From Nannocystales bacterium (lineage in GTDB: Bacteria; Myxococcota_A; Polyangia; Nannocystales; Nannocystaceae), in the NCBI GenBank assembly GCA_050633305.1, contig JBOEGF010000064.1:1-21522 (forward strand): DNA of 21,522 bases. The letters are read 5' to 3'. Shown here one piece after another: positions 1,166 to 19,379 of the stretch. Under the pieces are notes generated by a model. The model was not told the DNA's origin and did no database searches. It saw nothing but the letters and a program-made list of their open reading frames with translations. A program made the translations under genes and the position numbers. The first letter of the stretch is position 1. The number at the start of each line of letters is the position of its first letter.

Positions 1166-1181
1166 CGATCGGGTCGGTGCG

Positions 1182-2816: not shown

Positions 2817-2825
2817 CGTGGCCGC

Positions 2826-3071: not shown

Positions 3072-3692
3072 CTAGATCGGCGATTCCGGCACCATGATGA
3101 TGTCGCCCGGCTCGATTGGGAGGTCTTGGGCGCGACTCTCGACGATCGCCTGAACGTCGATCTCCACCGTCTTGCGACCCTGGGCGGTCTCCCGGATCAG
3201 CTTCACCTTGCGTTGCTGGGCTTGTGTGGTGAGGCCGCCAGCGAGCGAGATCGCCTGCATGATCGTGAGCGTGCCGTCGTGGGGATAGGAGCCGGCCTCC
3301 TTCACTTCGCCCAGCACGGTGATCTGCTCGGGGTTCTGCCGCTCCAGCAGCGAGACGCTGACCTGAGGGTCACGCAGCCACCCATCGGCGAGCTTGCTCT
3401 CGATGTCCGCGGCGACATCGCCGGGATTGCGGTCGAGCGCGGGCACCTCTCCGATGCGCGGGAACCGAATCGAACCGTCGGCGGACACGACGTACTCCCC
3501 CGACATTTCCTCTTGGCCACGGACAACGATGTCGAGCTTGTCGCCGGCGCGCACGTCGTCGGACTTGGGCGTGGTCGCCGGCGGAGGCAAGACGACTGGT
3601 CCGGTTGTTTTGGGGCAGCCGGAGACAACCACGACCACCAACGCCCAAACGAGGGCGATTCCCAGCGACGTCAGACTAGATGCGGATCGCAC
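3072..3692 (-). CDS. OPX/Wza-family polysaccharide export lipoprotein, short D1D2 type (Poly_export plus one SLBB domain, no D4 helix)
   Basis: Lipobox VVSG|C. Poly_export motifs GDKLDIVVRGQEEMSGEYVVSADGSIRFPRIGEV and WLRDPQVSV. SLBB motifs ITVLGEVKEAGSY, TIMQAISLAGGLT, DLPIEPGDIIMVPES, then stop. GTG 3692 puts Cys at position 26; ATG 3731 is an alternative start. Confidence 0.88.
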   Translation of the reverse strand: MRSASSLTSLGIALVWALVVVVVSGCPKTTGPVVLPPPATTPKSDDVRAGDKLDIVVRGQEEMSGEYVVSADGSIRFPRIGEVPALDRNPGDVAADIESKLADGWLRDPQVSVSLLERQNPEQITVLGEVKEAGSYPHDGTLTIMQAISLAGGLTTQAQQRKVKLIRETAQGRKTVEIDVQAIVESRAQDLPIEPGDIIMVPESPI

Positions 3693-5121
3693 CGATGAGC
3701 CAAGCGGTGTGTTTGATGTAGCCGAGTTCATCGGGGAATTCCGTGGGTGCGTCTGGGTCCCCCGGGACGGGGTCAAGAGGATAGACCACGGTGAACTGTG
3801 TGCTGTCGACCAACATCGTGTAGCTCAGACCGAGTGAAAAAATGCGTCCAAGCGGCTGGTCGACCTTCGCGAGCAGGGTGAACAGGGTGTGCTCCGACTG
3901 GTACCCCTGGGCACCACGACCCTCATAGCGGGTGACGTCCGGCGTTTCTTCCCCCTCGACCGGAAGACCCGAATAGGTCCGCCCGATCACCCCGAGCCCG
4001 GCCTGCAGGTTCATGCGCCAACGGAACTGATGACTGGCAAGGAAGTTCGCGCCGTTGTCGACGTAGTAGTTGCCGAAGATCGAGTCGGTGAACGTCCGGG
4101 CGCCGTTGAGGCTCAGCGTGGTGCGCAGCGTCGGGAAGTAGCTCAAGCCGACGTTGCCCAAGAACGAACCGAAGTTCGGACCGTTCTCATCGTCTCGGTA
4201 AAAGCCCCAGCCCCAGCCGACCAACGCACTGAGGGCGACCTTCTTCCCGATCTGGCCTCGGTACCCGCCCAAGAGGCGATGCGCGAAACTGTCCTCGTTG
4301 CGACCCAACCCGGGCGAGACACAGCAGTCGGTGTAGAAGGTCCAGTCGAAGTTGTAGTTGAGAACCAGCGCCGACTTGGGCAGGAAGCGCCACTTGGTCT
4401 CGTGGGCCAGCCCATGACGCATGTGGTTGCTCTTGGCCAACTCATCGAGGCCGAACCGCATGTAACGGTTGCGGTAGCCCAGCAAGAGCGAGAGCCGGCC
4501 ACCGCCAGGACGCGCGATGAAGTCCAGCGCGCCTTCTTGTTCGATGCGGTTGAAGTTGAAGTCGGTTCCGCGGCTCTCGATGCTGCCCGGTGACGCGCCG
4601 CGGAACACGTCGTCGGAGAACCGGATCTCGAACCGGCGGCCGGGCAACAACGACAACCGAAGGCCAGCACCAAACGAGAACTTCGGCACCGTCCGAATAA
4701 CCTCGTCGCCCGAGAGGAACTGACGGAAGCCCGCGATGACGCCGATGTTGTAGTCGGCCAGGCGAGACGTTCGCTCGGGCGGCGTCTGCAGAACGCCACC
4801 AACCACGTCGCGGCTCCCCACCCCAATCCAACCGGTCGGGTAGAGGAAGGCGCCCGCCCTGCGCCCTTCATTGCGAGCGTTGTTGAAGATGTTGGAGTCG
4901 ACTCCCACGGGCAGCGCGATGCCCCCGTGGAACTTGGACTTCTTCCCGACCTTCAGGCCATCGCCGTCGGCAACGCGCGGCAGGTTCTGTGCCCCACCCG
5001 CCCGAGCAATCGCCGGCGACAAGCCGCACAGGAGCGAGAAGAGAATCCCGGCGAACAGCGTCCACAACCCCGCGCGGCGGCGGGTGACCTCGAAGGTCGG
5101 TCTCGGAAAAGCGGAAGACAA
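3676..5121 (-). CDS. Outer-membrane beta-barrel protein, probably the EpsX/Wzp-type barrel partnered with short OPX proteins (481 aa)
   Basis: Signal peptide (RRRAGLWTLFAGILFSLLCGLSPAIARA), many alternating amphipathic strands (KWRFLPKSALVLNY, GYRGQIGKKVALSALVGWGWG, VGLSYFPTLRTTLSLNG), and overlap with the OPX gene. TTG start. Strand number not determined. Confidence 0.75.
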   Translation of the reverse strand: MSSAFPRPTFEVTRRRAGLWTLFAGILFSLLCGLSPAIARAGGAQNLPRVADGDGLKVGKKSKFHGGIALPVGVDSNIFNNARNEGRRAGAFLYPTGWIGVGSRDVVGGVLQTPPERTSRLADYNIGVIAGFRQFLSGDEVIRTVPKFSFGAGLRLSLLPGRRFEIRFSDDVFRGASPGSIESRGTDFNFNRIEQEGALDFIARPGGGRLSLLLGYRNRYMRFGLDELAKSNHMRHGLAHETKWRFLPKSALVLNYNFDWTFYTDCCVSPGLGRNEDSFAHRLLGGYRGQIGKKVALSALVGWGWGFYRDDENGPNFGSFLGNVGLSYFPTLRTTLSLNGARTFTDSIFGNYYVDNGANFLASHQFRWRMNLQAGLGVIGRTYSGLPVEGEETPDVTRYEGRGAQGYQSEHTLFTLLAKVDQPLGRIFSLGLSYTMLVDSTQFTVVYPLDPVPGDPDAPTEFPDELGYIKHTAWLIGAIRI

Positions 5122-5338
5122 GTGGCGCGGCTCTGGCGGGAGGCTAACCGAAGGTCCGCCGCGTTCCCAAGGCAGCGACGAAGCTCGGCGATAGGACGCA
5201 GGGTCCCCACAGGAGTGCGGCCCCCCAGCCAGACTCGTGACAATTTTTTCGAGCGCAAAGCCGCGAAATTGCAGCTGTGCGCTCGTTCAGGACGGCGGTG
5301 CGTCGTCTGGTGCAAACCTAAGCGGGCAGGCGCTCAAG

Positions 5339-5926
5339 CTACGCAGACGGCGACGCAACGGTCGGTGGCTGCGCTTCGTCGATAGCCGGCGGAATGTCCG
5401 GCTCGGTCGGCGCGATCGTCGGATCCTGAATTGGGATCCCGTCGGTCTTGTCGAGCTCGTTTCGCGTCACGTCGTCGCGATCTTCGAGCTCCTGTTCGCC
5501 CGAGCAGCCCTTTGCAGAGGCCATGACACCGTCCATCGCATTTGCGGCGGCCTGAAGCTTTTCAGCGGCGAAAGACTTCGCCTGCGCAGATGCCGTCGAG
5601 TCGCGGAGCACCATGAGCTCCGGGGTGGCCGTGGACATGATGTCCTGCGCCCGAGTGACTTTGTCCTCGAGACAGCCGGCAAGCTGAGCGTCGCCGTCGG
5701 CTTTGGCGGCCTGCGCCATCTTGCCGAGCTGCGCCATGGAGCCCTCCAAACGCGACTGAGCCTTCGATACGGCCCCCGCGTCGTACGTTTTGTCCGTGCC
5801 CGCCTCATCCGAAGACGGAGGGGCTTCGGGAGCAGGAGCAGCGAGAGAGAGTCCCCCCACCAAGACGGCCGGAAGCAGCGCTGTGAGCGCTGCGGCCTTC
5901 GCAAACAATCGAACCGGACCTGCCAT
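5339..5926 (-). CDS. Secreted/periplasmic helical protein with two Cys and a Pro/Asp-rich tail, function unknown (195 aa)
   Basis: Signal peptide MAGPVRLFAKAAALTALLPAVLVGGLSLA, Ala-rich helices with AGCLEDK and AKGCSGE. TAATG overlap with the upstream gene. Confidence 0.8.
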   Translation of the reverse strand: MAGPVRLFAKAAALTALLPAVLVGGLSLAAPAPEAPPSSDEAGTDKTYDAGAVSKAQSRLEGSMAQLGKMAQAAKADGDAQLAGCLEDKVTRAQDIMSTATPELMVLRDSTASAQAKSFAAEKLQAAANAMDGVMASAKGCSGEQELEDRDDVTRNELDKTDGIPIQDPTIAPTEPDIPPAIDEAQPPTVASPSA

Positions 5927-7272
5927 TACGAACCTGAGAATACCACGGAGAAGGAAACGTCAGCGCCTTCCTCGGCCCCGTTCATCGGGAAGCGCCACCC
6001 TTTGATCTTGGCTTTGGTGCAGGCTTTCACCCCCGCATGGCCCAGCGTGTCCTCTTCGATGGCCACGCTGGTCACACTGCCCATCACGTTGATGACGATG
6101 GCGAAGCTCATCTTGCCCGACAAGTCCGGCTGGACCCGAAGCGCCTTGTTGTAGCAGTGCTGAAGTGCGCTGGTGCGGTGCTTGATCGTGGCCTTGATAG
6201 CCTTCTTGTCACCACCGCCGGCCGCGCTGGTACCGGACGCCTTGGCGCGCCCTTTGATCTTGCGCTCCCGTTTCTTGACCCCCTTGTCGACGGCCGGACC
6301 ATCGCCGGTATCGAACCCTTTGGTCTGGGTCAGTTGGCCGTGGAGGTCGATGCCGTCGCCGCCGATCGGCGCGAGGTCTCCGAGTGGGCCGTTGGCTTCG
6401 ACCGTGGTCGTGAAGCCAGCGTCTGCGAACTCGCCGAGGCGGTTCTCTGTGCTCTGGATGACATCGAACACGGTGCCGGGACCGTCTCCGCCGTACGTGC
6501 CGAGCACCCGTGCCACGCCCACGCTGCGGGCTTGCTTGACCGCCGCCTTGGAGAACTTCTTCGGCTTCTTGTCGAGCTTCTTGTTGTTCTCGGGCTTGGG
6601 CTTGTCCTTGGTCTCGACGACATCCTCGTCTTCCTCGGCAAGCTGGTCTTCGTCGATCTCTTCTTCCTCGGGCTCTTCCTCGCGCTCGTCCTTGGGCTTG
6701 TGTCCGACGGCGACGAGGAAGCGCTCATCGATGTCCATCTCATCGTGGACAGGGACCTCGCTGAAGTTCGCCCAAAGGAACACGGGCCCCAGAAGACCGG
6801 TCGCGATGAGCTGCGAGTACACGAACAGCGCGCCGACCATGCCGACGACCGAGGCTTTGAAGATCGCTGGGAACGGAAGGCGCGGCGGAACCGGCTTCGG
6901 CGGCCCGAACTGAAACACCAAGGTGCTCTGCCCGATGCGGAGCTTGCCCTTGGCGCGCGGGTCCAGCTTGATGCGACAGGTGTTCCCCTTACCGTATCGC
7001 TGGCGGAGCTTCGCCACGGAAACGGCCTTCTTGCCGACCCGAACCTTTCCGCGTGTGTCAGGCGGAAGATCGAGGAAGTAGGCCCCCTGACGAACGTCGA
7101 ACAGCTGGTGCCGCGTCGGCGCCTTCTTTCCGAAGAGGACAACATCGGCGTTGTGGTGGGTACCCACGCTGACGCCCCCCGGCGCGGTCTGATGCAGATC
7201 CTCGCTGACCGTCTCGTCGACGACCACGACGAGCCGCAGAACTTTGGAACCTGATTTGGAGGGGGCGCTCAT
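5926..7272 (-). CDS. GltG/PglI-like inner-membrane transducer: FHA-like N-domain, TM helix, charged linker, AgmX/PglI (TonB-C-like) C-terminal domain (448 aa)
   Basis: N-domain ends AKGKLRIGQSTLVFQFGPPKP, followed by a hydrophobic segment, an acidic then Lys-rich linker and a Gly-rich region. C-domain LQHCYNKALRVQPDLSGKMSFAIVINVMGSV...VKACTKAKIKGWRFP...VSFSVVF. Confidence 0.85.
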   Translation of the reverse strand: MSAPSKSGSKVLRLVVVVDETVSEDLHQTAPGGVSVGTHHNADVVLFGKKAPTRHQLFDVRQGAYFLDLPPDTRGKVRVGKKAVSVAKLRQRYGKGNTCRIKLDPRAKGKLRIGQSTLVFQFGPPKPVPPRLPFPAIFKASVVGMVGALFVYSQLIATGLLGPVFLWANFSEVPVHDEMDIDERFLVAVGHKPKDEREEEPEEEEIDEDQLAEEDEDVVETKDKPKPENNKKLDKKPKKFSKAAVKQARSVGVARVLGTYGGDGPGTVFDVIQSTENRLGEFADAGFTTTVEANGPLGDLAPIGGDGIDLHGQLTQTKGFDTGDGPAVDKGVKKRERKIKGRAKASGTSAAGGGDKKAIKATIKHRTSALQHCYNKALRVQPDLSGKMSFAIVINVMGSVTSVAIEEDTLGHAGVKACTKAKIKGWRFPMNGAEEGADVSFSVVFSGS

Positions 7273-7510
7273 CCGCTTTGTTTGTTTTAGCAGTTTCTGC
7301 CGAAAAGGGGGTCGAAGAGAGGGAGGACGGACGCACTTCGGGTGGCGTCGCGAGGTACTCCTAAAGCATCAACCACGGGCGCGCCTTCTGTAGGGCTGAT
7401 TTGGGCCTGCACCCATCCGCCCCGGAGCGAGCTGGTGTCAGAAGCTGCAGTGACCATGCCACTCATGAGCGGAACGTAGAAGCGACAGGTTGGCGTGGAG
7501 GCAGAGGGTT

Positions 7511-7545
7511 CAAGGGCGGTCGAGGGCGGTCGAGGGCGGTCGAGG
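7511..7545. repeat. 10-bp tandem repeat (CGAGGGCGGT) x3.5
   Basis: caagggcggt cgagggcggt cgagggcggt cgagg. Confidence 0.8.
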
Positions 7546-7668
7546 TTCAGGGGAGCCGAGACATCAGCGTCAGGTTGCAGGACACAACGGTCATCCCCCG
7601 CCTGGCTTTCGCCCCCTAGAAGTGTATGTGCGCTCAGCGTCAGATCCGTCACAAAAACAGGTGCACAC

Positions 7669-7709
7669 AAAAAAAATCCGCGAGCAGATCCGGTCCGCAG
7701 GCTCGCGAA
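7669..7709 (-). terminator. Intrinsic terminator-like hairpin with U8 tract, downstream of the motor genes
   Basis: Minus strand UUCGCGAGC-(15 nt)-GCUCGCGGA-UUUUUUUU. 9-bp stem including one U-G pair that is possible only on the minus strand. Confidence 0.55.
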
Positions 7710-7715
7710 CGACAA

Positions 7716-7745
7716 ACGCGAGCAAGGCAAAAACCTTACTCGCGT
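7716..7745 (-). terminator. 12-bp hairpin (second terminator or anti-antiterminator)
   Basis: Minus strand ACGCGAGUAAGG-UUUUUG-CCUUGCUCGCGU followed by UUGUCGUU. One U-G pair, specific to the minus strand. Confidence 0.5.
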
Positions 7746-7859
7746 GAATCCAGCGAGACCCGCCGGCATCGCGACCGACGGGGGGAGCTGGTTGCGGCCG
7801 ACCGCTCGTGTCACGGGAGTGGACGAGCGGGGGCCGTTGGGTTCGACGTACCGGGCGGA

Positions 7860-8438
7860 TTAGCCGCCCAGCTGAATCACGCAGAATGCGTACTGCGAGT
7901 ACTCAGCCTTGCCGGCCGTGTACATCACCTTGACCAAGGTCGAGAACTTGAGGTTCACGTCGCCCACTAGGATGACCGTGCCCTCCCACTCCTCGCCTTT
8001 TTGGCCCGAGGTTTGTTTCGAGCGCTCCGCTTCCTCCGACATGAGGTCGAAAAGCGGACCGATCAGCTGACCGGTGACCTGCGTCGGGTCGACGTCACCG
8101 TTCTCGTCGAGCTGCACGACTCGCTGCGATCCAAACGTGATCGAACGTTGCGAGACGTACACCGGAACACCGTCCTGGATGGGCGCATCCGCCCGCGACA
8201 TCGGAACTTTTTGTCCCGCGGTCGGGGTGATGACGACCGGGTCGGTGCCGTAGCTCTTGAGCAGGTACACGACGATGATGGACACGACGTCCATCAGCGA
8301 GGTGATGTTGAGGTTGCCCTCTTCGATGTCGTTGTTGCGACGGGCGGCCTTCTTGGCTTTCTTCTTGGCGAGGAAAGCCTGCTGAGCCGCTTGTTGAGCC
8401 GCCAGCTGTGCCGCCTGATTTGCATGGTGGTCACTCAT
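7860..8438 (-). CDS. ExbD/TolR-family motor subunit (AglQ/AglS-like), conserved TM Asp retained (192 aa)
   Basis: LNITSLMDVVSIIVVYLLKSY TM segment and C-terminal VILVGDVNLKFSTLVKVMYTAGKAEY. ATG 8438 overlaps the upstream TGA (TGATG). Confidence 0.88.
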   Translation of the reverse strand: MSDHHANQAAQLAAQQAAQQAFLAKKKAKKAARRNNDIEEGNLNITSLMDVVSIIVVYLLKSYGTDPVVITPTAGQKVPMSRADAPIQDGVPVYVSQRSITFGSQRVVQLDENGDVDPTQVTGQLIGPLFDLMSEEAERSKQTSGQKGEEWEGTVILVGDVNLKFSTLVKVMYTAGKAEYSQYAFCVIQLGG

Positions 8439-9022
8439 CAGCCTGCACCTGCCTCTACGATGGGCGACCAAAACAGGCACTCCGCAGGAACTTCTTCACC
8501 CGCTGACACTGCATTCAAGAGAGTGCAGTCGCGGCCTCGAAGCGCATCCATCGTCTTGATGATGGCTTGCAGCGGGATGTCGTTCTCGGCGCTGATGGTC
8601 ACGACCGTTTCGTGTTGAAACAGCTTCTTGTACTCGATGGCCTTCGTCTCAAGGGCATCGTAGTTGTACCGATCGAAGTCGCTCAGATCCGATCCCGGCT
8701 TCGCCAGGGGGATCGTGGGCTTGCTCGAGTCGGCCGCCTTGCCGCCATCGGCGCCCGCCTGTTGGCCGGACGCGCTGACCCGGTACCCGTCACTCATGAC
8801 GAACACCTTCAGGTTCAGCGGTTTTTCTTCCTTCTTCTTTTCCTCTTCCTTCTGATCGGACTGAGCAGCGAACTTCGGCGGCGACACATTAATCGCCGCA
8901 AAGCGAGCCACCTCCATCGCGAGCAGAAGGGCCGGGATGAGAAGGAACATGACGTTCATGACCGGGATGAGGTTTGCTTCAACCTCTCCCTCATCAACGC
9001 TCTTTTTCTTACGTCTCGCCAT
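8438..9022 (-). CDS. ExbD/TolR-family motor subunit (AglQ/AglS-like) with Asn at the conserved TM Asp position (194 aa)
   Basis: EANLIPVMNVMFLLIPALL TM segment and VTISAENDIPLQAIIKTMDALR. SD-like AAGGAG upstream. Confidence 0.88.
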   Translation of the reverse strand: MARRKKKSVDEGEVEANLIPVMNVMFLLIPALLLAMEVARFAAINVSPPKFAAQSDQKEEEKKKEEKPLNLKVFVMSDGYRVSASGQQAGADGGKAADSSKPTIPLAKPGSDLSDFDRYNYDALETKAIEYKKLFQHETVVTISAENDIPLQAIIKTMDALRGRDCTLLNAVSAGEEVPAECLFWSPIVEAGAG

Positions 9023-9128
9023 GCGTCTCTCCTTCCTCCGTGGTGTGGGCAGACCCTGGGTTCACGGGATGCTTCCCTCGACGACCGTCTGGCTGCCGAG
9101 GATGAACATGTTCCGAACTCCCCAGAGA

Positions 9129-9761
9129 TCAGCCCTGACGCACTCGTGCGGCCAGGAGGTTCTCGAGCTTGACCGCGTAGAGATCCACTTCGTCGGAGAT
9201 CTTCTTGGCCAGGTTCGAGATGAAGATGTGGGAAGCAAGAAGCGGGATCGACACCATGAGACCGAAGCCGGTGGTGTTAATCGCGATCGAGATACCTTTT
9301 GCCAGAGCAGTTGCGCGCTGGTCAGCGGAGACGGTCGCAACCGCCTTGAACGCCTCGATCATCCCGAAGATGGTTCCGAGGAGACCCAGCAGAGTCGCGA
9401 TGTTCGCGAGCGCCGAGATCATCGGCACGCGCTTGGTGATGGCGGGGCCAACCTCAAGCATCGACTCTTCGATGGCAGCAGCGATGTCCGCCTCCGACTT
9501 GTTGGCGCGGGTCAGGCCAGCTTTGATCACGCGAGCCAGCGCAGCCTTGTCGGCGGCATTGCACAGCTTGATAGCGCGGTCGATGTTGTTGGCCATCACC
9601 AGCTTCTGGATCTGGTTGAAGAACTGTCCTCCGTTAATGTTGAAACGGAAAAACAGGAAGATGAAGCGCTCGATCATCACGCCTGCGCCCAAAATGGCAG
9701 TAAGGGCGATGGCGTGCATGAAAGCGCCGCCCTGCTGGTAGAACTCAGCAAAATTGTCCAT
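9129..9761 (-). CDS. MotA/TolQ/ExbB proton-channel protein (AglR-like, 210 aa)
   Basis: QGGAFMHAI...IERF, IQKLVMANNIDRAIKLC, LARVIKAGL, ANIATLLGLLGTIFGMIEAF, LAKGISIAINTTGFGLMVSIP. Three TM segments. Confidence 0.93.
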   Translation of the reverse strand: MDNFAEFYQQGGAFMHAIALTAILGAGVMIERFIFLFFRFNINGGQFFNQIQKLVMANNIDRAIKLCNAADKAALARVIKAGLTRANKSEADIAAAIEESMLEVGPAITKRVPMISALANIATLLGLLGTIFGMIEAFKAVATVSADQRATALAKGISIAINTTGFGLMVSIPLLASHIFISNLAKKISDEVDLYAVKLENLLAARVRQG

Positions 9762-9771
9762 GACTCGTTGT

Positions 9772-9778
9772 CCTCCTC
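9772..9778 (-). promoter_or_regulatory. Strong Shine-Dalgarno of the aglR-like gene
   Basis: GAGGAGG, 10 nt before ATG 9761. Confidence 0.75.
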
Positions 9779-9781
9779 ATC

Positions 9782-9920
9782 GTCGGCGGGACAGCAAGGC
9801 CCCGCATTGGTCCGCGGGACAGCAAGGTCCCGCATTGGTCGGCGGGACAGCAAGGCCCCGCATGGGTCGGCGGGACAGCAAGGCCCCGCTGTGGTCGACG
9901 GGACGGCAGGTCCCGCGGTG
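9782..9920 (-). repeat. Five tandem 28-bp palindromic (hairpin) repeats, no spacers
   Basis: + strand consensus GTCGGCGGGACAGCAAGGCCCCGCATTG at 9782, 9810, 9838, 9866 and 9894 (last unit 27 bp). Each unit contains GCGGGAC-N5/6-G(C/T)CCCGC, with first base A in the last unit. Confidence 0.92.
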
Positions 9921-10136: not shown

Positions 10137-10763
10137 TTAGAACAAAGGATCCTGTACGGACTCAAGCACCAAAGGTAAGAATTTCGCGTCGAGCCGCGCC
10201 CAATCGTACGCGGACTGCGAGCGACGTAAGATGAAGAATGCGTTTGGCTTCTCGAGTCGACCTTCGACCAAGAAGTCCTCGTCCAACGAGATCTTGCGAT
10301 CCGAGGCATCTGGGGCACGATCAGCGCCTTCGCCAGACGCGCGGGAGCCCCCGCGCTTCTTGCCGCGTTTCTTCTTGCTTTTGCCGCGCTTCGGCGGGTC
10401 AGCATCGGAGCCGGCGGGCGCGATGGTGCGCATCGCGACACGTTCCCCCTCGAGCGGCGCGCGCTGACGAGACGACGATGCTCGCAACGCACGTCGAGCG
10501 GCGGTGTCGAGAGGACCAGCACCGGTCTTCGTCGCTCGCGGTTTCGGCTTCGAGCCGGGAGCCTGCCGAGCCTGCCGACGAGCATCGTCGGCCGGTGGTT
10601 TCTTCGCTCGAGGCTCGGTCTTCGAAGCTTCGGGCGTGGACGCCGACGTCCCCTCAGCAGGCGCAGCGTTCACGGGGACGGCGACGAAACATGCCAAGAG
10701 GCCGAGCGCTCCGAACGAAGTCAGGACTGCGTTCCGCGATGTGATTCGGTTCGTGGTGCTCAT
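10137..10763 (-). CDS. GltF/CglF-like secreted protein with a long basic disordered region (208 aa)
   Basis: Signal peptide (...GALGLLACFVAVPVNA). C-terminal LDEDFLVEGRLEKPNAFFILRRSQ...FLPLVLESVQDPLF resembles the GltF family motif. Follows the gltE-like gene with an ATGA overlap. Confidence 0.75.
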   Translation of the reverse strand: MSTTNRITSRNAVLTSFGALGLLACFVAVPVNAAPAEGTSASTPEASKTEPRAKKPPADDARRQARQAPGSKPKPRATKTGAGPLDTAARRALRASSSRQRAPLEGERVAMRTIAPAGSDADPPKRGKSKKKRGKKRGGSRASGEGADRAPDASDRKISLDEDFLVEGRLEKPNAFFILRRSQSAYDWARLDAKFLPLVLESVQDPLF

Positions 10764-12604
10764 GTCCAACCTCGGGCGTCATTCCGCCGAGCCGTCGCCG
10801 GCAGGTTCGCGTCCTTCTTCAGATGGCTTGGAGACGTGACCCGTGCGTGACGTCTCCCGCCAAGATTAGTGTCGTCACGACGCAGCGGGTTCCCCGCCCT
10901 CGCACTTTTATTCCCAGGCTTTTGCACCCCCGGTTTCTGGGGTGCCGTCGGAGCGGGCTTCGACGGGGTGGGTTGGCCCGGTTTCGTCGCGGGCGCAGTG
11001 GGTTTTGCCGGTTTTGCTGGCGCGCTCGGGTTGCTCGCGGGCGGCTTCGAGCCTCCCGGCTTCGTCGGGGCCTTGGGAGATCCTCCCGGCTTCGCCGGAG
11101 CCTGTGGCGAACCGCCAGGCTTTGCGGGGGCCTGCGGAGATCCTCCTGGCTTGGCCGGCGCCTGCGTGGAACCACCGGGCTTCGCGGGTGCCTGCGGTGC
11201 TCCCGGTTTCGCGGGGGCCTGCGCAGACCCTCCCGGTTTCGCGGGGGCCTGCGCGGAACCTCCAGGCTTGGCGGGCGCCTGCGCTGATCCGCCTGGCTTC
11301 GCGGGCGCCTGAGTAGAACCGCCCGGCTTGCTCGGCGTCGATGGAGCTCCCGGTTTGGTGGGGGCGGCAGGAGATCCGCCCGGTTTCGCGGGGGTCGCCG
11401 GCGCCCCACCTGGCTTCGCTGGAGCCGCTGCATCACCGCCGGTGGCGGGCTGGGCCGCTCCATCCGTAGGTGCAGCATCCGCCCCGCCGGGAGCTTGCGG
11501 TGTCCCGGCCTCGGCAGCGGCTTTCGCAGCCCGTTCGGCCTTGCGTTTGGATGTCCGCTCCTCCCGCTCGATCCCTTTCTTTGCCAAGCGAATGTAGTCG
11601 TCGGCCCGCTCTACCGAGACAGGCGCGATGCGCTTCTTGGATCCCAGGCCTCGGGCGAGCGGCTCCGTCGTCGCGCGTCCGCCCGCGAGCTGTTTGTAGC
11701 GCTCCAGACTCGAGATCGCGGTCTGCAACCGTTTCGTCGTCGTCATGTCGCCCATGGTCTGGGCGTCGAGGTAGAGCACCCCGAGGTTGAAGTGCGCCTC
11801 GGGGTAGTTCCGCTGCAGCTCCAGCGCCTTGCGGATCTCCTTCTCAGCCTCGGGCAGCTTGCCCTGCGCTCGCAAGGCCGCTCCGTAGTTGAGGTGCGCC
11901 TTCGCGAAGCCCGGCTTGAGTTCGAGCGCGTACTCGAAACACGACGCCGCAGTGTTCACGTCTCCGGCCCGGAGGTAGCGGGTGCCCAGGTTGTTCCAAG
12001 CCGCGGCGTTCTTGTCGTCGGCCTCCGCCGCCTTTTTGAACGCCTGGGTCGCCATCTGGTCCTTACCCAACGACGCGAGCGCAAACCCTTGAAGGTTGTA
12101 GACCGCCGAGGTGTCCTTCGGCGTCCGGACCTTTTCGTCGACCGCGAGCGCAGTGGTGGTCACCGAGACAACCAGCTCGTGCTTGCCCTCTCGATAGAAC
12201 ACCTCAGCGAGAATCATCATCGCGTCGACGTTCTGCTCGTGGATCTTCAACGCGGCGCGAGCGTTGGTCACCGCCTCGGAGAACTTTTTCTGGTCGAGCA
12301 TCTTCCGCGCCTGCGCACTGCGCTGCCGCGAAGCCGCCATCTTGCGCTTCTCTTCCTCGGGGTCACGGTCTTGAACCTTGGGCAGGTCCTGCTCGGCCGG
12401 CTTGGCAGCGGCGCCATCCTTCGCGGAGGGCGACTTCGCCGACGCGTCGTCCGGCTCCATGTCTTCGAGGGCGGAGACGCGATCGGCTCCGGGGTCCTTC
12501 GTGGCCGCGCCATCCTTGTCGCAAGCTCCAGCCAGACATAGACCGGCACCCAGGCCAAGACCCAGAAAACCGCGCAGCAGTCGTCGGTTGTGCGGCTCGT
12601 TCAT
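10760..12604 (-). CDS. GltE/AglT-like TPR lipoprotein with a Pro/Lys/Gly repeat tail (614 aa)
   Basis: Lipobox LAGA|C. TPRs AAAWNNLGTRYL, AKAHLNYGAALR, PEAHFNLGVLYLD. ATGA overlaps at both ends. Confidence 0.85.
   Translation of the reverse strand: MNEPHNRRLLRGFLGLGLGAGLCLAGACDKDGAATKDPGADRVSALEDMEPDDASAKSPSAKDGAAAKPAEQDLPKVQDRDPEEEKRKMAASRQRSAQARKMLDQKKFSEAVTNARAALKIHEQNVDAMMILAEVFYREGKHELVVSVTTTALAVDEKVRTPKDTSAVYNLQGFALASLGKDQMATQAFKKAAEADDKNAAAWNNLGTRYLRAGDVNTAASCFEYALELKPGFAKAHLNYGAALRAQGKLPEAEKEIRKALELQRNYPEAHFNLGVLYLDAQTMGDMTTTKRLQTAISSLERYKQLAGGRATTEPLARGLGSKKRIAPVSVERADDYIRLAKKGIEREERTSKRKAERAAKAAAEAGTPQAPGGADAAPTDGAAQPATGGDAAAPAKPGGAPATPAKPGGSPAAPTKPGAPSTPSKPGGSTQAPAKPGGSAQAPAKPGGSAQAPAKPGGSAQAPAKPGAPQAPAKPGGSTQAPAKPGGSPQAPAKPGGSPQAPAKPGGSPKAPTKPGGSKPPASNPSAPAKPAKPTAPATKPGQPTPSKPAPTAPQKPGVQKPGNKSARAGNPLRRDDTNLGGRRHARVTSPSHLKKDANLPATARRNDARGWT
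11045..11422 (-). repeat. Coding tandem repeat, 13 units of ~PAKPGGSxQA (27-30 nt)
   Basis: Visible in both the translation and the DNA; units differ at synonymous sites. Confidence 0.9.
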
Positions 12605-15600
12605 CGCAAGTCCTCCACCTGCAGGTCGAGTGCAGGCTGCCGCAGCAACGGATACTCGTCGGGTTTGTAGATGTTCAGGCGCTCTCGAGCAGCGCGAGTG
12701 AACTCGTTCTCCACACTGTACGCCTTGGAGAGCTTGATCGTCGCCTCATACTCGGAGAGTGCGATCGCTTCGAACCGGTCCGCCGCCGCGCCCACGATGT
12801 CTTTGTAGGCAAACCAAGATTCGCTGTACTCCTTGAGCTGTTTGGGCACCGGAGCGTCGCGGAGGTTGATCGCGGTCTGCTCGAGCGCCTTGCCCTTGGA
12901 GAACGTGGCGCCCAACGCCCAGTCGACGCGCTTGTAGTCGACGACTTTGTCGAACTCACTGCTCGCGGCCACCACCGACTCGAGCAGCTGCTTGGATTCC
13001 TTCTCCAGCTTCTTGCGCTTGGTGCTCTTGATCTTGGATGCCGAGACCTTCTCGAGTTCGGCAGATGCCAACAGGAACTGCGCCTCGCTGGGGAAGTCAG
13101 CCGCCTCGGAGGCAGGTTTGAGCTGACGTGTCTCGAACTCGACGACGGTCTGACGGTAGTACTCGTCGGCTTTCTTCTGGTTGCCCAGCTGCTCGTGGGC
13201 CTGTCCGATTCGCAGCTGCGCCTCCACCACCCGCTCGCTCTGCCCCGCGTCCGCGGTGTGCTGGTTGAGGAAGGACTGGTACGCGGAGATGGTCTTCTTG
13301 TGGTTCTCGGTCTTGCCGAGCACCTGCGCAGCCTTGAACCGGGCCTCGGCAGCTTCCGCAGGGTCGGCGGTCTGCTCCGCGTAGCGTTGGTACATCTGCG
13401 AGCTGCGCTCGTACTCCTGCAACGCGTCGAGCACCTCGGCGGCGTTCTGCAGACTCTCGTCGCGGAACTCGCTGTCCTGGTAGCGCTCGTCCTCGGCGAG
13501 GATCGTGTACGACTTGACCGCTTCTTCGTACTCAAAGAACCGCGAGTGGTTGAAGCCGGTTCGCAGCAACGCATCGTCGGCGAACTCCGAGTCCGGGTAG
13601 CCGCTGTAGATGCGCTTGTAGGTTTGGCTCGCAGAGGAGAACCGCCCAATGTTCTCGTAGGCCACGGCGGCGTTGTTGAGAGCTCGGTCCGCGTTGGGGT
13701 CCTTGGGCGCCTGGTCGACCAACGCCACGTATCGGTCGGCAGCAGCCTCGAACTCCCCCGCGTCGTAGAGAATCGTCGCTTCTTTGAAACGAACGGCGTT
13801 GCCCAGCGCGGTGAGTTGGCCTGCGAACTTTTCCTTCTCGGCCCCTTCCCCGCAGCCCTTCGCCCCGAGTTTTTCGGTCCACTGCTGCGCGCCCTCGAGG
13901 TCCTCGAGCACGACGCGTGCATCGAGAATCGCTTGGCCGGCGTTGATGGCGATGTTCTGGCTGCAGTAGTCGTCGATGACCCGCTCGAACCGCCCCTGCG
14001 CTTCGTCGAACCGGAGGTAGCGCTGGGAGATCTCTGCAGCTTGGTAGGCCATCGTGCCGGCCTGCTCGGAGTCGGGGCGCAACGCCACGAAACGGTCGTA
14101 GGACTCCTGCAGCGAGCGCTCCACTTCGGGCACTTCCATTGGCGTGTCGAAGGGCCCTTCCATGCCGTCCTTGGGCATGTCGGGCCGCGCGTACCCGCCC
14201 GCGGTGATCTGGTCCTCCAAGTAGGACTCGTACGCCAGGACCGCTCCGATTGCGGCATCCTCCTGAAGGCGGTTGTCGATGTTCGAGTCACGGACCTGGC
14301 CGTACTGCTCGGCGGCGTTCAGGTACTCGTCGCTGTAGTACAGCGCATCGGCAAAGTTGTAGCGGTACTCGTACGACGACTCGGTGTCGGGGAACCGCTC
14401 CAGATACGCCTCGTACGCCCGCGCAGCGATCGCGTACTCGGCCTTCGCCTCCTCGTTCTTCCCCTCGCCGCGCAGCTCCTGGGCGTAGACGTGGTGATCG
14501 ACCGCCGTCGCCACAAGCGCGCCCTCGGCAAGCTTGAGCGCGGCTTCGATCGTGTCGGGATCATCCTCGTTGGCGTAGAACCACTTGGTGCCGCGGAGGT
14601 AGTTGGTGGCCAGCGCGTCCCGAGCCCTCGTCGCGCCGTCCTTCTGCTGGAGCATCTCGTGCGCCTTGAGGATGCGGTCTTGAATCGACGGTGCCGCCGC
14701 GGCCATGGGCCATCGGTCCAGGGTGCTCTGCCAGATGCCAATCGCGGTCTTGAAGTCGGTCTGATAGGCCAGCAGATCGCCCAGCGCAGCGTAGAGCTCG
14801 GGCACATGCCGCTCGTTGCCCCGCTCGCTGTAGTCGCGATCGAGGCGGCGGTATCCACGGGGGCGGTCGGGATTGCCGTCGTTGTCCCAGTCTTCCTCGA
14901 CGTAGGTCTTGGCGAGGTACTTGACCGCGTCGTCTCGAAGCGCGAGCGCGCCGGAGATTTCCTCGCTGTCGCGCCGTGCGTCCGCATAGCGGATGAACTC
15001 GTCGAACTTCTGTGCCGCCTGCGGGAACTCCCGCATGAGGTACAGAGTCCACGCCATGCGGATGAGCGCCTCGTCGTAGAGGTCGTCTTCGGGTGTGCCC
15101 GCGGCCTTGGCGTAGGCCTCCAGCGCCGGACCAAACTGGTCTGCGTCGTAGTGCGTCTCACCGATGCGCAGCCACGCCTCGGCCTCGAACTCGCTGTCCT
15201 TCTTCCACGCGTTGCAGTCCCCGTAGATGCCCTCGGGGAAGCGCTTCTCGGCCAGGTTCGAACCGTCCGCTTTGGGAGGGTCGAACTTGTTCGCGCACGC
15301 CAGCGCCAGGTAGCTCTGGCGAGACTGCTCGGGCTGCTCCATCTCGTAGAGCAGCGTGCCCATCATGTACAGCGCGCCATCGCCCAGGTGGAAGCGGGGG
15401 AAACGGCCCACGATGCCGCGGTACAGATCGACGGAGTCCGCGTAGTCGGCCTTGGGGCTCGGCGGCGGCTCGGCGTCGGGGTTCTTCTCCATCGCCTTCT
15501 GGTAGGCCTCGACCTCCTTCGCGAACGCATCCTCCTGCCGAGCAAGGCGTTCGGTGCTGGCCTCGAAGTGCAGCTCGGCCAGCCGATACATGATCTCCGG

Positions 15601-16089
15601 CGTCCAGGTCGCGTCGTCGGGGTGAACCTTGAGGAAGTCGCCGTAGCGCCGGATCGCCTGAGCCCGCATCTTTCGGGCCTTGGCCTGGTGGTCCCGGATC
15701 TGGCGATCGTAGTGGTTCTCGAGCGCCCGTCGGCCTTGGGCACCACCGATCTTCAGCTGCGAGGCGACGGTGTGCGCCGCGGCCTCCTGCGCCGCCTTGT
15801 AGCGCCCGAGGAGTTCCTCCATCGTGTCGAGCCCTTCGGACTCCGACGCGTCTTTGGGGCGCAGCGGAAGCGGAGCTTGGAGACGGCCCGCGTCGGTGGG
15901 TCGGATCTGCCGATCCAGCGGAACGCCCGAGCCCGGCTCCCCCGCGATTCGACGTTTGCGCTCCTTCTCGCGCTCTTCGTCGTTCCCGAGCTTGTTCATG
16001 TCGCCTGGCAGCATCCGGGCGGACACCGCCGTGGGCGCGAGCAGGCTCAGCCCCACGGCGAACGCGACGCTGGTGTGGAGGCGTTTCAT
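12601..16089 (-). CDS. GltD/AgmU-like large periplasmic TPR protein (1162 aa)
   Basis: Signal peptide. TPR/BamD-like repeats throughout (PEIMYRLAELHFE, AEAWLRIGETHYD, DRALNNAAVAYE, DDALLRTG). C-terminal AARERLNIYKPDEYP. Size and position fit gltD. Confidence 0.82.
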   Translation of the reverse strand: MKRLHTSVAFAVGLSLLAPTAVSARMLPGDMNKLGNDEEREKERKRRIAGEPGSGVPLDRQIRPTDAGRLQAPLPLRPKDASESEGLDTMEELLGRYKAAQEAAAHTVASQLKIGGAQGRRALENHYDRQIRDHQAKARKMRAQAIRRYGDFLKVHPDDATWTPEIMYRLAELHFEASTERLARQEDAFAKEVEAYQKAMEKNPDAEPPPSPKADYADSVDLYRGIVGRFPRFHLGDGALYMMGTLLYEMEQPEQSRQSYLALACANKFDPPKADGSNLAEKRFPEGIYGDCNAWKKDSEFEAEAWLRIGETHYDADQFGPALEAYAKAAGTPEDDLYDEALIRMAWTLYLMREFPQAAQKFDEFIRYADARRDSEEISGALALRDDAVKYLAKTYVEEDWDNDGNPDRPRGYRRLDRDYSERGNERHVPELYAALGDLLAYQTDFKTAIGIWQSTLDRWPMAAAAPSIQDRILKAHEMLQQKDGATRARDALATNYLRGTKWFYANEDDPDTIEAALKLAEGALVATAVDHHVYAQELRGEGKNEEAKAEYAIAARAYEAYLERFPDTESSYEYRYNFADALYYSDEYLNAAEQYGQVRDSNIDNRLQEDAAIGAVLAYESYLEDQITAGGYARPDMPKDGMEGPFDTPMEVPEVERSLQESYDRFVALRPDSEQAGTMAYQAAEISQRYLRFDEAQGRFERVIDDYCSQNIAINAGQAILDARVVLEDLEGAQQWTEKLGAKGCGEGAEKEKFAGQLTALGNAVRFKEATILYDAGEFEAAADRYVALVDQAPKDPNADRALNNAAVAYENIGRFSSASQTYKRIYSGYPDSEFADDALLRTGFNHSRFFEYEEAVKSYTILAEDERYQDSEFRDESLQNAAEVLDALQEYERSSQMYQRYAEQTADPAEAAEARFKAAQVLGKTENHKKTISAYQSFLNQHTADAGQSERVVEAQLRIGQAHEQLGNQKKADEYYRQTVVEFETRQLKPASEAADFPSEAQFLLASAELEKVSASKIKSTKRKKLEKESKQLLESVVAASSEFDKVVDYKRVDWALGATFSKGKALEQTAINLRDAPVPKQLKEYSESWFAYKDIVGAAADRFEAIALSEYEATIKLSKAYSVENEFTRAARERLNIYKPDEYPLLRQPALDLQVEDLR

Positions 16090-18509
16090 TCTCCGAGGTC
16101 CTCCAGGCCCATCTCGATGGCGAGGTCGAGTTCACGGATGTCGCGCTCGCGGACCCTCTCCAGCCGGCCAACCTCATCGGTCTCGGCCTCTTTCATCGCC
16201 CAAGCAACATCGAGCAGGCCCACTTCGGACCGCATCGTGAGGTTGCCGATCTCACCCACCACATCGACATAGGCCGCCTCCAGGACCGATGCCACCACGG
16301 CCTTCGTGTCCCCGGTGGTCTGGGTCAGCTCCACGAGGTAGCGGTCCAAGTTGGCCCGCTCCTCGACGAGGATGGTGACCGCGCCCTGGAGCCGCTTTGC
16401 GGCGGACCGCTCGAGGGCGCCACGGGTGTTGTCGACACGAACCTGCATGCCCTCCACCCGCTTCATGACCGTGGTCGCGTCGGGGTCTTTGGATGCCTTC
16501 GTCAGCGCGCCCCACATCCCTTGCAGATGTTTTCGGTAGGCGCGGTTGGCCTTCTGCTGCGCCGCCAACAGCGGGTCCTGGTAACGAACCGCCGACTTGG
16601 CGCGAGAGATCTTGTCCCGCAGCGCCTTGGATTCCTTCTCGAGCTCCGCAATCTCATTGCGCTGCGCGGCTGCCTGCTTCAGGAAGCCCTGACGGTCGAT
16701 CTTCTGGTCCTTGCGCGTCTCATCGTAGTAACGCTCGGCGGCGATCAGCTGCGCTCGCATCTCGCCGATGAACAGGTCCATCTTGTGCGCCTGCTCGCCG
16801 AGTCGCTCCAGTTTGGCGACCGTCTTGCGGTAGTCCGGCCCACGAGAGCCGAGTGGCTCATCGACGCGACGACGAAGCTTGCGCCGCTGTGATTCCATTC
16901 GGTCGAGCGAGGAGCCCTTGAGCTTCGAAGCGAGCCGGTAGACCAGGGCCTCGCGAACCTCGAGCAAGTCCTTGTCCACGTTGTCCAGACCGGTCGCGTG
17001 AGCGCCCAGGTCGTTGAACAGCCGCGCCTTTTCTCGCGCTTGCACGGCTTCTTCCATGCGCGCGAGCAGGTCTCGCGTTTCGGTCAGCTCCCGCTGCAGC
17101 ACCCCGACCTCGCGAGAGACCGCCTCAGCGTGCACCGCCGAGTCGAGCGTTCGTGCCACGGGCAGCGCCGCGGCAGGAAGCAGCGAGGTGAGCGAGAAGT
17201 TCTCCATGTCCTCGCCGACGACTGCGGCGAAGTACGCCCGAGCATCGGACTGTGTGGAGAGCTTGCTGGACATGCGCTTGCCCAACCGGTCGAACTCACG
17301 GCGCAGCGTCAGGAACTCTTCCTCCGCACTGGCGTAGTCGCGCTGCTGGATCTTGATCTTGCCGCGCAGCTGCTTGATCTCCGCCGAGATGGGAGACTCG
17401 GGGTCGTAGATCAGCAGAAGATCGAGCGCCTGGATCGCCTGCTCGTACTGCTTGTTTCCCAGCAGCGTCCACGCGGTCTCGTACATCGCCTCGGGGAAGA
17501 AGGGCGAATCGCGACCGATCTGTCGGTACGCGTTGACCGCTTGGTCCGACTCCCCGGTGTCGTGCCGGATGCGGCCGATCGCGAGCCAGGACAGCTCCTT
17601 GATCTGACGGTCGCGAGGGTTGCTGGGGTTGGCCTTGACGATGTTGCTGAACCGAGCGAGCGCATCATCGAGTTCGCCCGCGCCCACCGAGGCCGATGCC
17701 GCCACGTAGGCCGCTCGGACCCGCCATTGGGCCCCGGGCCCACCGCGGCTGATGGGAACGTCGAGCGGACTGAGCGACTCAAGCTCCTCGATGGCTTTGG
17801 CGTAGCGCTCGGTGAGGAACAGGTACCGCCCGTACGAGTAGCGGAGCTCGGCATCCCGGTCGGATCGCGGGAACGACTCCGCCCACTGCATCAATCGCTT
17901 GGCGTCGTCTTTGCTGACGATGCCGTCGGGAGGCGCCACGGAGATATCCACGCCCACGGACTGCAGGCGAGCTCGGACCTCAGGCGTGGCCGAGAGCCCC
18001 GGTCGTCGCGCAAAGCCATCGTCGCGGCGAGGAATCGCGAGGTCGAACAACCGCGCCACGGACAGCTGTTGAAAGCGCTTCGCGTCGGGTCGGCGATCGG
18101 AGAGGTTCTTGGAGAACAGCTCGATCGCCCACGCCTCCATGCCCATCTTGGTGAGCGCGTCTCCCAGGAAAAACACGGCCTGGGTGCCCGCGGGCGTCTC
18201 GCCGTAGTTTTCGACCAAGTCGAGGAACTTGATGGCGGCGCCTTCGTAGTCGCCCTCGGCCATTTGCAGTTGGCCAGACACCAGCTGCTTGGCCAACTGC
18301 GTGTCCGAGGGGACGGCCTCCTTGGCGGCGGCCCGCTCCGCCTTGACGACGCTGGCTTCCGATTCACGTAGCCGTTGCACGAGGTCGCCAAGCTTGGCGA
18401 CATCCTTCTTGCGACGGCGGGCGGGAGCAGCCTGCGCCTGAGTGGGCACTGCGATCGTGCCGGACACAACCGCGAGTGCGAGCAAAACCTGTTGGCAGGA
18501 GCGCTTCAC
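16086..18509 (-). CDS. GltC-like secreted TPR and coiled-coil protein (807 aa)
   Basis: GTG start, signal peptide ending AQA. TPRs ELSWLAIGRIRHD, YRQIGRDSPFFPEAMYETAW, IQALDLLLIYDPES, then a long heptad-rich C-half. The GltC relationship is inferred from architecture and gene order. Confidence 0.75.
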   Translation of the reverse strand: MKRSCQQVLLALAVVSGTIAVPTQAQAAPARRRKKDVAKLGDLVQRLRESEASVVKAERAAAKEAVPSDTQLAKQLVSGQLQMAEGDYEGAAIKFLDLVENYGETPAGTQAVFFLGDALTKMGMEAWAIELFSKNLSDRRPDAKRFQQLSVARLFDLAIPRRDDGFARRPGLSATPEVRARLQSVGVDISVAPPDGIVSKDDAKRLMQWAESFPRSDRDAELRYSYGRYLFLTERYAKAIEELESLSPLDVPISRGGPGAQWRVRAAYVAASASVGAGELDDALARFSNIVKANPSNPRDRQIKELSWLAIGRIRHDTGESDQAVNAYRQIGRDSPFFPEAMYETAWTLLGNKQYEQAIQALDLLLIYDPESPISAEIKQLRGKIKIQQRDYASAEEEFLTLRREFDRLGKRMSSKLSTQSDARAYFAAVVGEDMENFSLTSLLPAAALPVARTLDSAVHAEAVSREVGVLQRELTETRDLLARMEEAVQAREKARLFNDLGAHATGLDNVDKDLLEVREALVYRLASKLKGSSLDRMESQRRKLRRRVDEPLGSRGPDYRKTVAKLERLGEQAHKMDLFIGEMRAQLIAAERYYDETRKDQKIDRQGFLKQAAAQRNEIAELEKESKALRDKISRAKSAVRYQDPLLAAQQKANRAYRKHLQGMWGALTKASKDPDATTVMKRVEGMQVRVDNTRGALERSAAKRLQGAVTILVEERANLDRYLVELTQTTGDTKAVVASVLEAAYVDVVGEIGNLTMRSEVGLLDVAWAMKEAETDEVGRLERVRERDIRELDLAIEMGLEDLGE

Positions 18510-19372
18510 TTGGAGGACTTCTTGGGGGCCTTCGGCTTCGACTTGGCCTTCGACTTGGCCTTCGAGGACCGACGGCGCTGCTTCGGCAAGGGCCGCCCGC
18601 TGGCATCGAGCGGCTGCTCCTGCCAGTTCACGTTCGGCCGGTCCGTCATCTCGGTCGTCAGGTTGCCCTCTTCGTATCCCGACGAGACGATCTTGATGGC
18701 GCCGTTCTCAGGTGCGGTGAAGCTGTGCGAGCTGTTGGACTCGAAGCTGTAGCCGGACAGGTACGAGAACACGCCGTAGCCGTGCCCGGTGTAGGTCAGC
18801 TCGATCTGCACGGTGTGCGGCCCGGGGGGAAGGTTGCCGTCGAGAATGACCAGCTCGTCCTCGGTGTCGAGGCTGCCGGTCTCATCGTTTCGGGCGACGA
18901 TCTGCGCGCCATCGAGCGTGTACACGACCCGGACCAGCTTGAAGCCCGAGCCCATGAGGTTGCGATGCGCGAGAATGACCCTGCTGCCCGCCAGCACACC
19001 GCGAAGCACGGTCTCCTTGAGGAGCGAGAGCCGGGCTTTGCTGCGGAAGATCCGGTCCTTGAGGCCGTCGACATCGGTCTGCAGGGAGTTCAGTCGATCC
19101 CCGTAGAGATCGCTCTGACGAACATCGGACGATCCCTTGGCGCCACCGGCCCCCTCCATCGGGTTGACGGTGCCTTTCGCCGGTTTCTTCGCGGCCGCCG
19201 GCTTGGCTGTCTTCGGCTTCGCCGTCGTTGGCTTCGCCGCACCAGCCGCAGCCTTGGGCTTCGTCGGTGCGGGCGCCGCACTCGCTGGAGCAGCGCCCAA
19301 AACCAAGAAACAGAGCAGAGCGAACACGCCCCTGCCCCACACAATGGCTCGGTTCACACCACGCCTACGCAC
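18506..19372 (-). CDS. Secreted protein with a short coiled coil and a beta-rich domain, function unknown (288 aa)
   Basis: Signal peptide (...VFALLCFLVLGAAPASA), Ala/Lys/Pro linker, coiled coil LNSLQTDVDGLKDRIFRSKARLSLLKE, beta domain (YTLDGAQI...PGPHTVQIELTYTGHGYGVFSYLSGYSF) and basic tail. GTG 19372 chosen; GTG 19357 is possible. Confidence 0.8.
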   Translation of the reverse strand: MRRRGVNRAIVWGRGVFALLCFLVLGAAPASAAPAPTKPKAAAGAAKPTTAKPKTAKPAAAKKPAKGTVNPMEGAGGAKGSSDVRQSDLYGDRLNSLQTDVDGLKDRIFRSKARLSLLKETVLRGVLAGSRVILAHRNLMGSGFKLVRVVYTLDGAQIVARNDETGSLDTEDELVILDGNLPPGPHTVQIELTYTGHGYGVFSYLSGYSFESNSSHSFTAPENGAIKIVSSGYEEGNLTTEMTDRPNVNWQEQPLDASGRPLPKQRRRSSKAKSKAKSKPKAPKKSSK

Positions 19373-19379
19373 GCCTGCC

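Follow-up and report, generated by a model that had tools for sequence, protein, structure and literature searches.

The closest described relatives of the locus reported here come from Myxococcus xanthus (statements credited to the literature reflect the passages of each source that concern these genes). There, the motor AglRQS serves both the Glt and the Nfs machines (PMC3858216), and the Agl-Glt model has GltC docking onto the barrels GltA/B/H (PMC11761067). A further cluster, G4 (MXAN_1919-1923), has been listed with unknown function (Luciano 2011, PMC3169522). MXAN_1915 and MXAN_1916 correspond to WzaB and WzpB of the biosurfactant polysaccharide (BPS) pathway (PMC7310880, PMC9603273, PMC12819527, 10.1101/2022.04.04.486985), and WzpB and WzcB act with WzaB in BPS export (PMC7310880, PMC12819527). 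We analyzed a 21,522-nucleotide stretch from a Nannocystales bacterium (hereafter the window; contig JBOEGF010000064.1 of assembly GCA_050633305.1, covered in full, from a genome of 11.0 Mb that is 92% complete). Twelve open reading frames (ORFs), all on the minus strand, occupy the space that separates obgE (19599-20777) from a gene for Hsp70 (1182-3062). By ORFs and domain matches they run X, C, D, E, F, R, Q, S, G, Y, barrel, outer-membrane polysaccharide export (OPX) gene, the layout of co-oriented envelope genes that an earlier note on this DNA had described. We propose, with a rough probability of 0.45, that this block is a G4-type relative of Agl-Glt that holds a WzpB-type pore by way of X, and that strokes of its motor move the pore, thereby spreading or releasing polymer rather than powering export.

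Judging from sequence comparison, the block is almost certainly the orthologue of M. xanthus G4 (MXAN_1919-1923) plus wzpB/wzaB (MXAN_1916/1915). The two share the gene order C-D-E-F-G (PMC3169522), and the lengths of C and G nearly coincide: the GltC-like tetratricopeptide repeat (TPR) protein (16086..18509) has 807 aa against 809 aa in its counterpart MXAN_1923, and the GltG-like TonB-type transducer (5926..7272, with an AgmX/PglI C-terminal domain) has 448 aa against 447 aa in MXAN_1919. The GltD-like TPR scaffold (12601..16089; 1162 aa, counterpart MXAN_1922 with 1111 aa) falls into the same clade. In a GltD tree (FastTree, 39 rows, with long-branch warnings; a close relative, the Myxococcus-type genome G214, stood in for M. 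xanthus proteins), the window and the Myxococcus-type G4 loci separated with a support of 100 from the G1, Nfs-like and G5-like proteins and from a second glt cluster of the source genome, on contig C5. A gapless X-C-D-E-F-G-Y-barrel-OPX was seen in 14 of the 20 Myxococcia loci (from 20/57 X-matching genomes). The same order was seen in locus L205, in whose genome the gliding cluster and EpsY pass the curated cut-offs.

Compared with M. xanthus G4, the window carries R-Q-S between F and G. A motor within a glt-like cluster is not new, since the Agl-Glt "core complex" of Geobacter and Gammaproteobacteria described in 2011 runs, by locus tags, C, D, E, a further gene, R, Q, S, G (PMC3169522); what the window has beyond it is X on the upstream side, with Y, barrel and OPX on the downstream side. 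We infer from its position that X corresponds to MXAN_1924. Neither X nor Y appears in the passages and tables of PMC3169522 covered here. By locus tag, mglA and mglB (MXAN_1925/1926) adjoin the X position of G4 (10.64898/2026.08.28.747804); G4 genes are not mentioned in the matching passages of that source. For MXAN_1917-1922, the literature searched, which left subscription papers and some supplements outside its scope, returned Luciano 2011 only. Likewise, no link between G4 and the pore was found in passages joining glt with Wza, capsule or WzpB, and subscription papers may differ on this point.

Motors of the kind encoded in this block are the only Agl-type motors found in the source genome and in five relatives, which would be expected if the whole block were the organism's gliding locus. 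This explanation is nevertheless very improbable. The proteins of the block fall far below the NCBIfam gliding cut-offs (GltC 50 of 450 bits, GltE 30 of 225, GltG 75 of 650). On all three models they are outscored by those of the C5 cluster, which is itself under the cut-offs (GltC 139 bits, from a partial gene; GltE 96; GltG 356); a true G1 GltE, for comparison, reaches 737 bits on the gliding GltE model. The GltD tree puts the C5 cluster on the gliding/Nfs side, and a gltA/B-like barrel pair lies on contig C11, with gltA/B-like genes present in 5/5 genomes searched. The block itself is without the GltA/B/H platform of Agl-Glt. Consistently, an aromatic C-terminal tail, which may be the GltB-binding or docking part of gliding-side GltC, occurred in 5/5 gliding-side GltC proteins inspected and in 0/108 G4 GltC proteins; the window GltC also lacks this tail of gliding-side GltC/NfsC. 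The C5 cluster (L001:253-20000) comprises C, D, E, F, an FHA-bearing G and a giant TPR gene, with two unrelated genes between E and F, and its type of gltD was found in 5/5 relatives, in two copies in G015.

The GltD phylogeny thus agrees with the earlier note in treating the block as a paralogous machine and not as the gliding locus. Domain and family scans of 18 window proteins likewise returned no gltA/B/H, wzc, wzx, wzy or glycosyltransferase match, as that note had stated. Its TPR, motor, ExbD, G and OPX labels fit the domains found. The GltF label fared less well: F (10137..10769), which occupies the position of MXAN_1920 and is conserved only in its last ~55 aa, reached a probability of 9% in a profile comparison with gliding GltF, and its identity with GltF rests mainly on position.

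We turned to the pore genes at the end of the block. The OPX gene (3072..3776) encodes a short protein with Poly_export and SLBB domains and a lipobox (Cys54 in ORF numbering), with translation likely starting at 3731 or 3692, and it lies beside a gene for an 18-strand outer-membrane barrel (3676..5121), which is the Class-3 layout. Its best match in the PDB was WzaB (9N9A; E 2.8e-24). Of two further OPX proteins in the genome, the one searched reached E 1.2e-11 on that entry. The OPX of L205 agrees with WzaB (PDB 9N9A) at 176/183 residues, an OPX tree agreed with this placement at a modest support of 82-84, and on the EpsY model the window OPX scored 74 bits (cut-off, 320). By orthology, then, the OPX is identified as WzaB and not as the EpsY/ExoA type. 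The "orphan OPX" of the earlier note is therefore no orphan: WzaB, its orthologue, has a published role in BPS export alongside WzpB and WzcB.

The barrel is, by synteny, the WzpB (MXAN_1916) orthologue. Judging by the source names of barrel homologues at 42-49% identity, the organism would fall in the Nannocystaceae. An alignment-based AlphaFold model showed 18 long strands (pLDDT 94.4, pTM 0.89) and replaced a single-sequence fold with a pLDDT of 30.5. The locus is thus like the WzaB/WzpB/WzcB translocon in having a Class-3 lipoprotein OPX beside an 18-strand barrel with the co-polymerase encoded elsewhere; in the text of PMC12819527 that could be searched, "glt" and "TonB" had 0 occurrences. 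A stand-alone Wzc with a fused kinase on contig C19 (L198:10402-12663) reached 552 bits against a profile made from Wzc proteins linked to the cluster and is a candidate partner; no polysaccharide genes were recognised by eye alongside it. In another genome, the barrel gene is in pieces (L038, G074:C7:447836-449024).

The association of the two modules was examined across the phylum. A profile search with X in 161 genomes matched 126, of which 125 strongly, almost always in single copy. Downstream stretches of 20 kb were taken for 80 of these 126, picked for contig room and family spread. The barrel lay within 20 kb of X in 64 of the 80 loci, or 64 of 73 once seven stretches that were too short are set aside, so that the linkage of barrel/OPX to glt-like genes is also seen elsewhere. 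Barrel and OPX were both within this distance in 48/80 loci, and motor, barrel and OPX were all present in 27 loci of 11 families. With GltD as the anchor and flanks of 10 kb, the barrel was present in 42 of 80 named loci and absent despite room in 18, the other 20 having short flanks; both sets of 80 were drawn from the same collection and may overlap. A gene-order search around G189 covered three genomes. Within the source family, gene order was intact in 13/13 loci as far as the contigs extend, which argues against a chance arrangement.

X and the barrel were also retained together irrespective of linkage. Counting strong matches genome-wide (n = 161), with five weak barrel matches and one weak X match scored as absent, X and barrel co-occurred in 123 genomes, X alone in two, barrel alone in one and neither in 35, and joint absence occurs inside families f7 and f34. 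We further called B-type OPX proteins at a threshold of our own (at least 165 bits) in 32 genomes: they were found in 9/16 genomes with an unlinked OPX, in 8/8 with split clusters and in 0/8 without X. Where loci are split, Y stays beside the barrel and X beside C.

These counts bear on two other explanations. The first is that inheritance alone has kept the two modules side by side, with no joint work between them. A terminator-like hairpin within the block would suit such an arrangement, as would the breakage of linkage in several families and the retention of the housekeeping genes obgE (near 16/80 loci) and Hsp70 (near 7/80) in some lineages. Mere neighbours would, however, hardly be kept where they are unlinked and lost together, the stop codon of gltG overlaps the start codon of Y, and the complex predicted below needs the barrel; we regard this explanation as improbable, slightly more so than the energised export discussed further on.

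The second is that the barrel serves as the outer-membrane anchor of G4 in a general envelope job, such as Tol-Pal-like tethering or remodelling, with export as a second, separable use. The barrel follows X (with only three discordant genomes) more tightly than it follows the OPX, a linked OPX is missing from 16/64 barrel loci, with no clearly B-type OPX anywhere in 7 of the 16 genomes concerned, ftsK lies within 3 kb downstream in 15/80 loci, and the predicted X contact would fit equally well. On the other hand, the OPX is linked in 48/64 barrel loci and directly followed by Wzc in eight loci of four families (within the stretch in 12), a B-type OPX was found in none of the eight X-negative genomes tested, and the G4 mutant is viable and motile (PMC3169522). 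We consider this the foremost of the alternatives, albeit still an unlikely one.

To place X and Y relative to the pore, we modelled them with the barrel. X (18506..19561) is a secreted protein whose N-terminus is of low complexity and whose coiled-coil/beta domain (about 18590-19120, same strand) is conserved; position 19372 is one in-frame start of this longer ORF. Y (5339..5926) is secreted and helical, with two conserved Cys residues and an extended tail. For neither was a family or fold named by ESM Atlas. X was chosen as the folding partner because G4 GltC proteins are without the aromatic tail of their gliding-side relatives. In the three-chain fold of barrel, Y and X, the interface score ipSAE for X had a median of 0.61 (runs 0.61, 0.38 and 0.64), and the best of three controls, which included X kept with the barrel replaced, reached 0.01. 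The runs shared at least 34% of contacts, with a partner pLDDT of at least 70. The ipSAE mark used is reached by 116/157 solved and 2/215 mismatched pairs and is only a rough guide for a three-chain job with its own alignments.

The predicted contacts involve barrel ORF residues 51-53, 105-112, 330-335, 363-373 and 423, Y residues 148-160 and X residues 204-206, 260-280 and 297-313. All of the barrel contacts fall on the side that faces the periplasm in the separate AlphaFold model, as we read it from strand parity. The X interface includes the top conserved residues of this protein (F265, 0.99; Y267, 1.00) and is on average more conserved than the rest of X (0.58 versus 0.47). The model supports binding of X to the barrel, short of demonstrating it, and we take such docking to be probable. 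Thus, the physical interaction between the modules that the earlier note had looked for exists as a prediction, and X, a near single-copy marker of G4, would be its adaptor to the barrel. Among the periplasmic turns of the barrel, conservation is highest in T3/T4 (window about 4370-4520), which lie away from the site predicted for X and might be where the OPX sits.

Based on the published Agl-Glt model (PMC11761067), the proposed machine would work as follows. An R5-Q-S motor would pull GltG, the periplasmic part of which may wrap GltD, and F would bridge to GltC. X with the tail of Y is predicted to dock on the periplasmic N-terminus of the barrel and on its turns T1, T6 and T7, and would thus take the place of the GltA/B/H platform; a contact of X to C is suggested by gene order only. 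Polymer would be carried by Wzc-WzaB-WzpB, as is known in M. xanthus, here possibly with the candidate wzc on contig C19. By analogy with Agl-Nfs, the motor would reposition the secretion site, and its output would be the spreading or release of polymer. The same motor probably also serves the gliding-side C5 cluster, with one stator Asp and possibly sodium.

Several observations weigh against this proposal. The barrel was not linked in 9/73 informative X-anchored loci and not within the 10-kb flank in 18/60 informative named loci, the 16 barrel loci without a linked OPX have been given above, a complete motor is missing from the cluster in 26/64 barrel-bearing loci, and the R-Q-S motor was found in 0/20 Myxococcia loci. 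All survey counts, moreover, treat kin as independent, which they are not. Conservation is not enriched at the predicted interface in either the barrel (0.29 versus 0.32 elsewhere) or Y (0.34 versus 0.38). An octameric WzaB, as modelled on all eight periplasmic barrel loops (PMC12819527), could clash with X. The window OPX has Pro-Ile in place of the C-terminal FF motif of WzaB and Arg-Asp in place of its RR motif; both motifs vary among linked OPX proteins, FF occurring in 15/83. In M. xanthus, a polar insertion in MXAN_1922 left motility normal (PMC3169522). Since wzaB mutants are impaired, showing swarm phenotypes (PMC7310880, PMC12819527), G4 would be dispensable for BPS export in that organism. 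The Snap-Flex tripartite model explains export without a motor (PMC12819527). Finally, movement of the pore in the outer membrane is a proposal by analogy, and none has been observed.

The last points also bear on the main inference of the earlier note, namely, that the motor energises export itself by opening the pore or drawing polymer through it. In its favour, the porin loops are described as shut at rest and not easily opened by a rigid WzaB (PMC12819527). TPR proteins also pair with 16- to 18-strand barrels in synthase pathways (10.1101/2022.04.04.486985), AlgE had the highest TM-scores (0.47-0.51) among the barrel fold matches listed, and the X-barrel contact is predicted. But loss of BPS export gives a motility defect that the MXAN_1922 insertion does not, the tripartite model requires no motor, and the EpsX/EpsY and ExoA/ExoB systems are described without a glt-like cluster (10.1101/2022.04.04.486985). 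X would also sit on periplasmic turns, distant from the surface gate. This inference is thereby weakened, and we rate energised export as improbable, below the anchor and about level with mere inheritance.

The motor itself consists, as in AglRQS (M1), M2 and Agl-Nfs, of one ExbB-like and two different ExbD-like subunits (PMC3858216, PMC11761067). On profiles of cluster motors, the window R, Q and S scored 337, 206 and 209 bits, and the runners-up from the genome 157, 88 and 35 bits; M1/M2-type R subunits score 209-260 bits on the cluster R profile. The 157-bit match is a lone, long-branch aglR-like copy (L002:9288-9902, contig C40) and the 88-bit match a lone aglQ-like copy (L003:9893-10501, contig C24), both without partner genes. 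In 5/5 relatives, an M1-type AglR found its best match in the G4-embedded gene (E about 1e-33, the runner-up being at 1e-19 or weaker), and no AglR-type match was seen near the C5-type gltD of these five. Five near-closed genomes from other families likewise had the embedded gene on top, with second matches, of unclassified type, at up to 1e-29. The block's motor is, on these matches, the only Agl-type motor found in the source genome and five relatives, and for this reason it is likely shared with the gliding-side C5 cluster rather than private. The genomes are 90-95% complete, so an overlooked second motor is possible. R-Q-S is thus present as the earlier note stated, and it is the exclusive use implied by "its own motor" that has become doubtful.

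The stator residues are unusual. In the AglQ-like ExbD protein (8438..9022), Asn23 occupies the position of AglQ Asp28, which we confirmed by residue numbering in the M1 locus. Across 59 AglQ-like rows, this position held Asn in 50, Ser in 5 and Asp in 4, and in 42 named loci N in 34 and D in 3, with 5 unresolved. The transmembrane Asp of the AglS-like protein (7860..8480; ORF residue 64) was retained in 58/58 rows. AglQ and AglS are both described as Asp-bearing (PMC9389320), and in M. xanthus AglQ D28N abolishes proton conductance (PMC3858216). The description of the block as a proton motor is therefore doubtful, since Asn replaces the essential Asp in the AglQ-like subunit.

The AglR-like pentamer subunit (9129..9761; MotA_ExbB) has Ile159 where TolQ has E173. 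In 59 R rows, which include a few non-cluster motors, an aliphatic residue was found there in 53 and a Thr-Thr pair in 52. M1- and M2-type motors, by comparison, keep both Asp residues; the embedded type has Asn or Ser in its AglQ-like subunit, no Glu and the Thr-Thr pair. T130, T163 and T164 map to T158, T185 and T186 of PomA, the sodium site at apparently equivalent places in the PomAB sodium stator (PMC10374538). This mapping was taken from the ends of a weak profile match (E about 10), and two of the three threonines are already present in TolQ. PomB is a homodimer with two Asp residues (PMC10374538), unlike the Asn/Asp pair of the window. We lean towards a one-Asp proton motor; sodium coupling is a less likely option, and a non-conducting scaffold is more doubtful still. 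No published work on the residues or the sodium coupling of this motor was found, with subscription papers possibly differing, and no solved AglR structure turned up. We take Enhygromyxa to belong to the source organism's family. Its isolates glide and require NaCl (PMC2953396).

The AglR tree left it open whether the sister of the embedded type is M1, M2 or neither, the careful search being incomplete. The G4 clusters of L103 and L076 each contain an M2-type motor (inverted in L076) that has kept both of its Asp residues, a hint at M2 as the motor of G4 where the cluster has none. In genomes G090 and G163 (L250-L253), M1-like and M2-like triplets stand back to back and G4 is without a motor; Sorangium has a similar motor pair by locus tags (PMC3169522). 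Locus L095 carries an identical second aglR copy downstream of gltG.

As for the remaining features of the window, the GltE-like TPR lipoprotein (10760..12604) ends in a Pro/Ala/Lys/Gly repeat tail. A 588-bp gap between the second exbD and gltG holds a 13-pair hairpin (7716..7745, minus strand) that resembles a terminator by consensus match only. Because it sits between the motor genes and gltG, the block probably comprises at least two transcription units, and G-Y-barrel-OPX may form a separate one. A promoter scan was at chance (1 found, 1.6 expected). Non-coding tandem repeats occur between the gltF-like and aglR-like genes (28 bp x 4.9, 9782-9916) and 5' of gltG (10 bp x 3.3, 7513-7545). 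After the OPX come the Hsp70 gene, which is under the DnaK cut-off, and a J-domain gene (together 626-3062); the OPX-Hsp70 adjacency is seen in most loci of the family and is direct in six loci of families f34, f48 and f53.

New here are the co-retention of X and barrel, the predicted docking of X and Y, the Asn/Ser AglQ-like stator and the likely sharing of the motor. If the pore-holding reading is true, it would give G4, without a function since 2011, a job at a polysaccharide pore, and it would bear on how Class-3 OPX pores are powered and gated. With X as a named adaptor and its contact residues predicted, the link becomes testable in M. xanthus. A wider view, which we hold to be unlikely in its entirety, more so than the anchor and less so than energised export, is that G4 is a phylum-wide motorised pore handle acting via X/Y, in many lineages with an asymmetric, sodium-coupled single-Asp motor that in this family powers gliding as well, and an ancestral-type machine, that is, a living form of the pore mover behind the gliding and spore-coat machines. 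A natural counterpart of the null D28N, retained in many families and present in the only Agl-type motor found in a family that includes gliders, calls the picture of a two-Asp 5:2 motor into question: an Asn-bearing motor must run on a single site, depend on a different ion or serve as a non-conducting scaffold.

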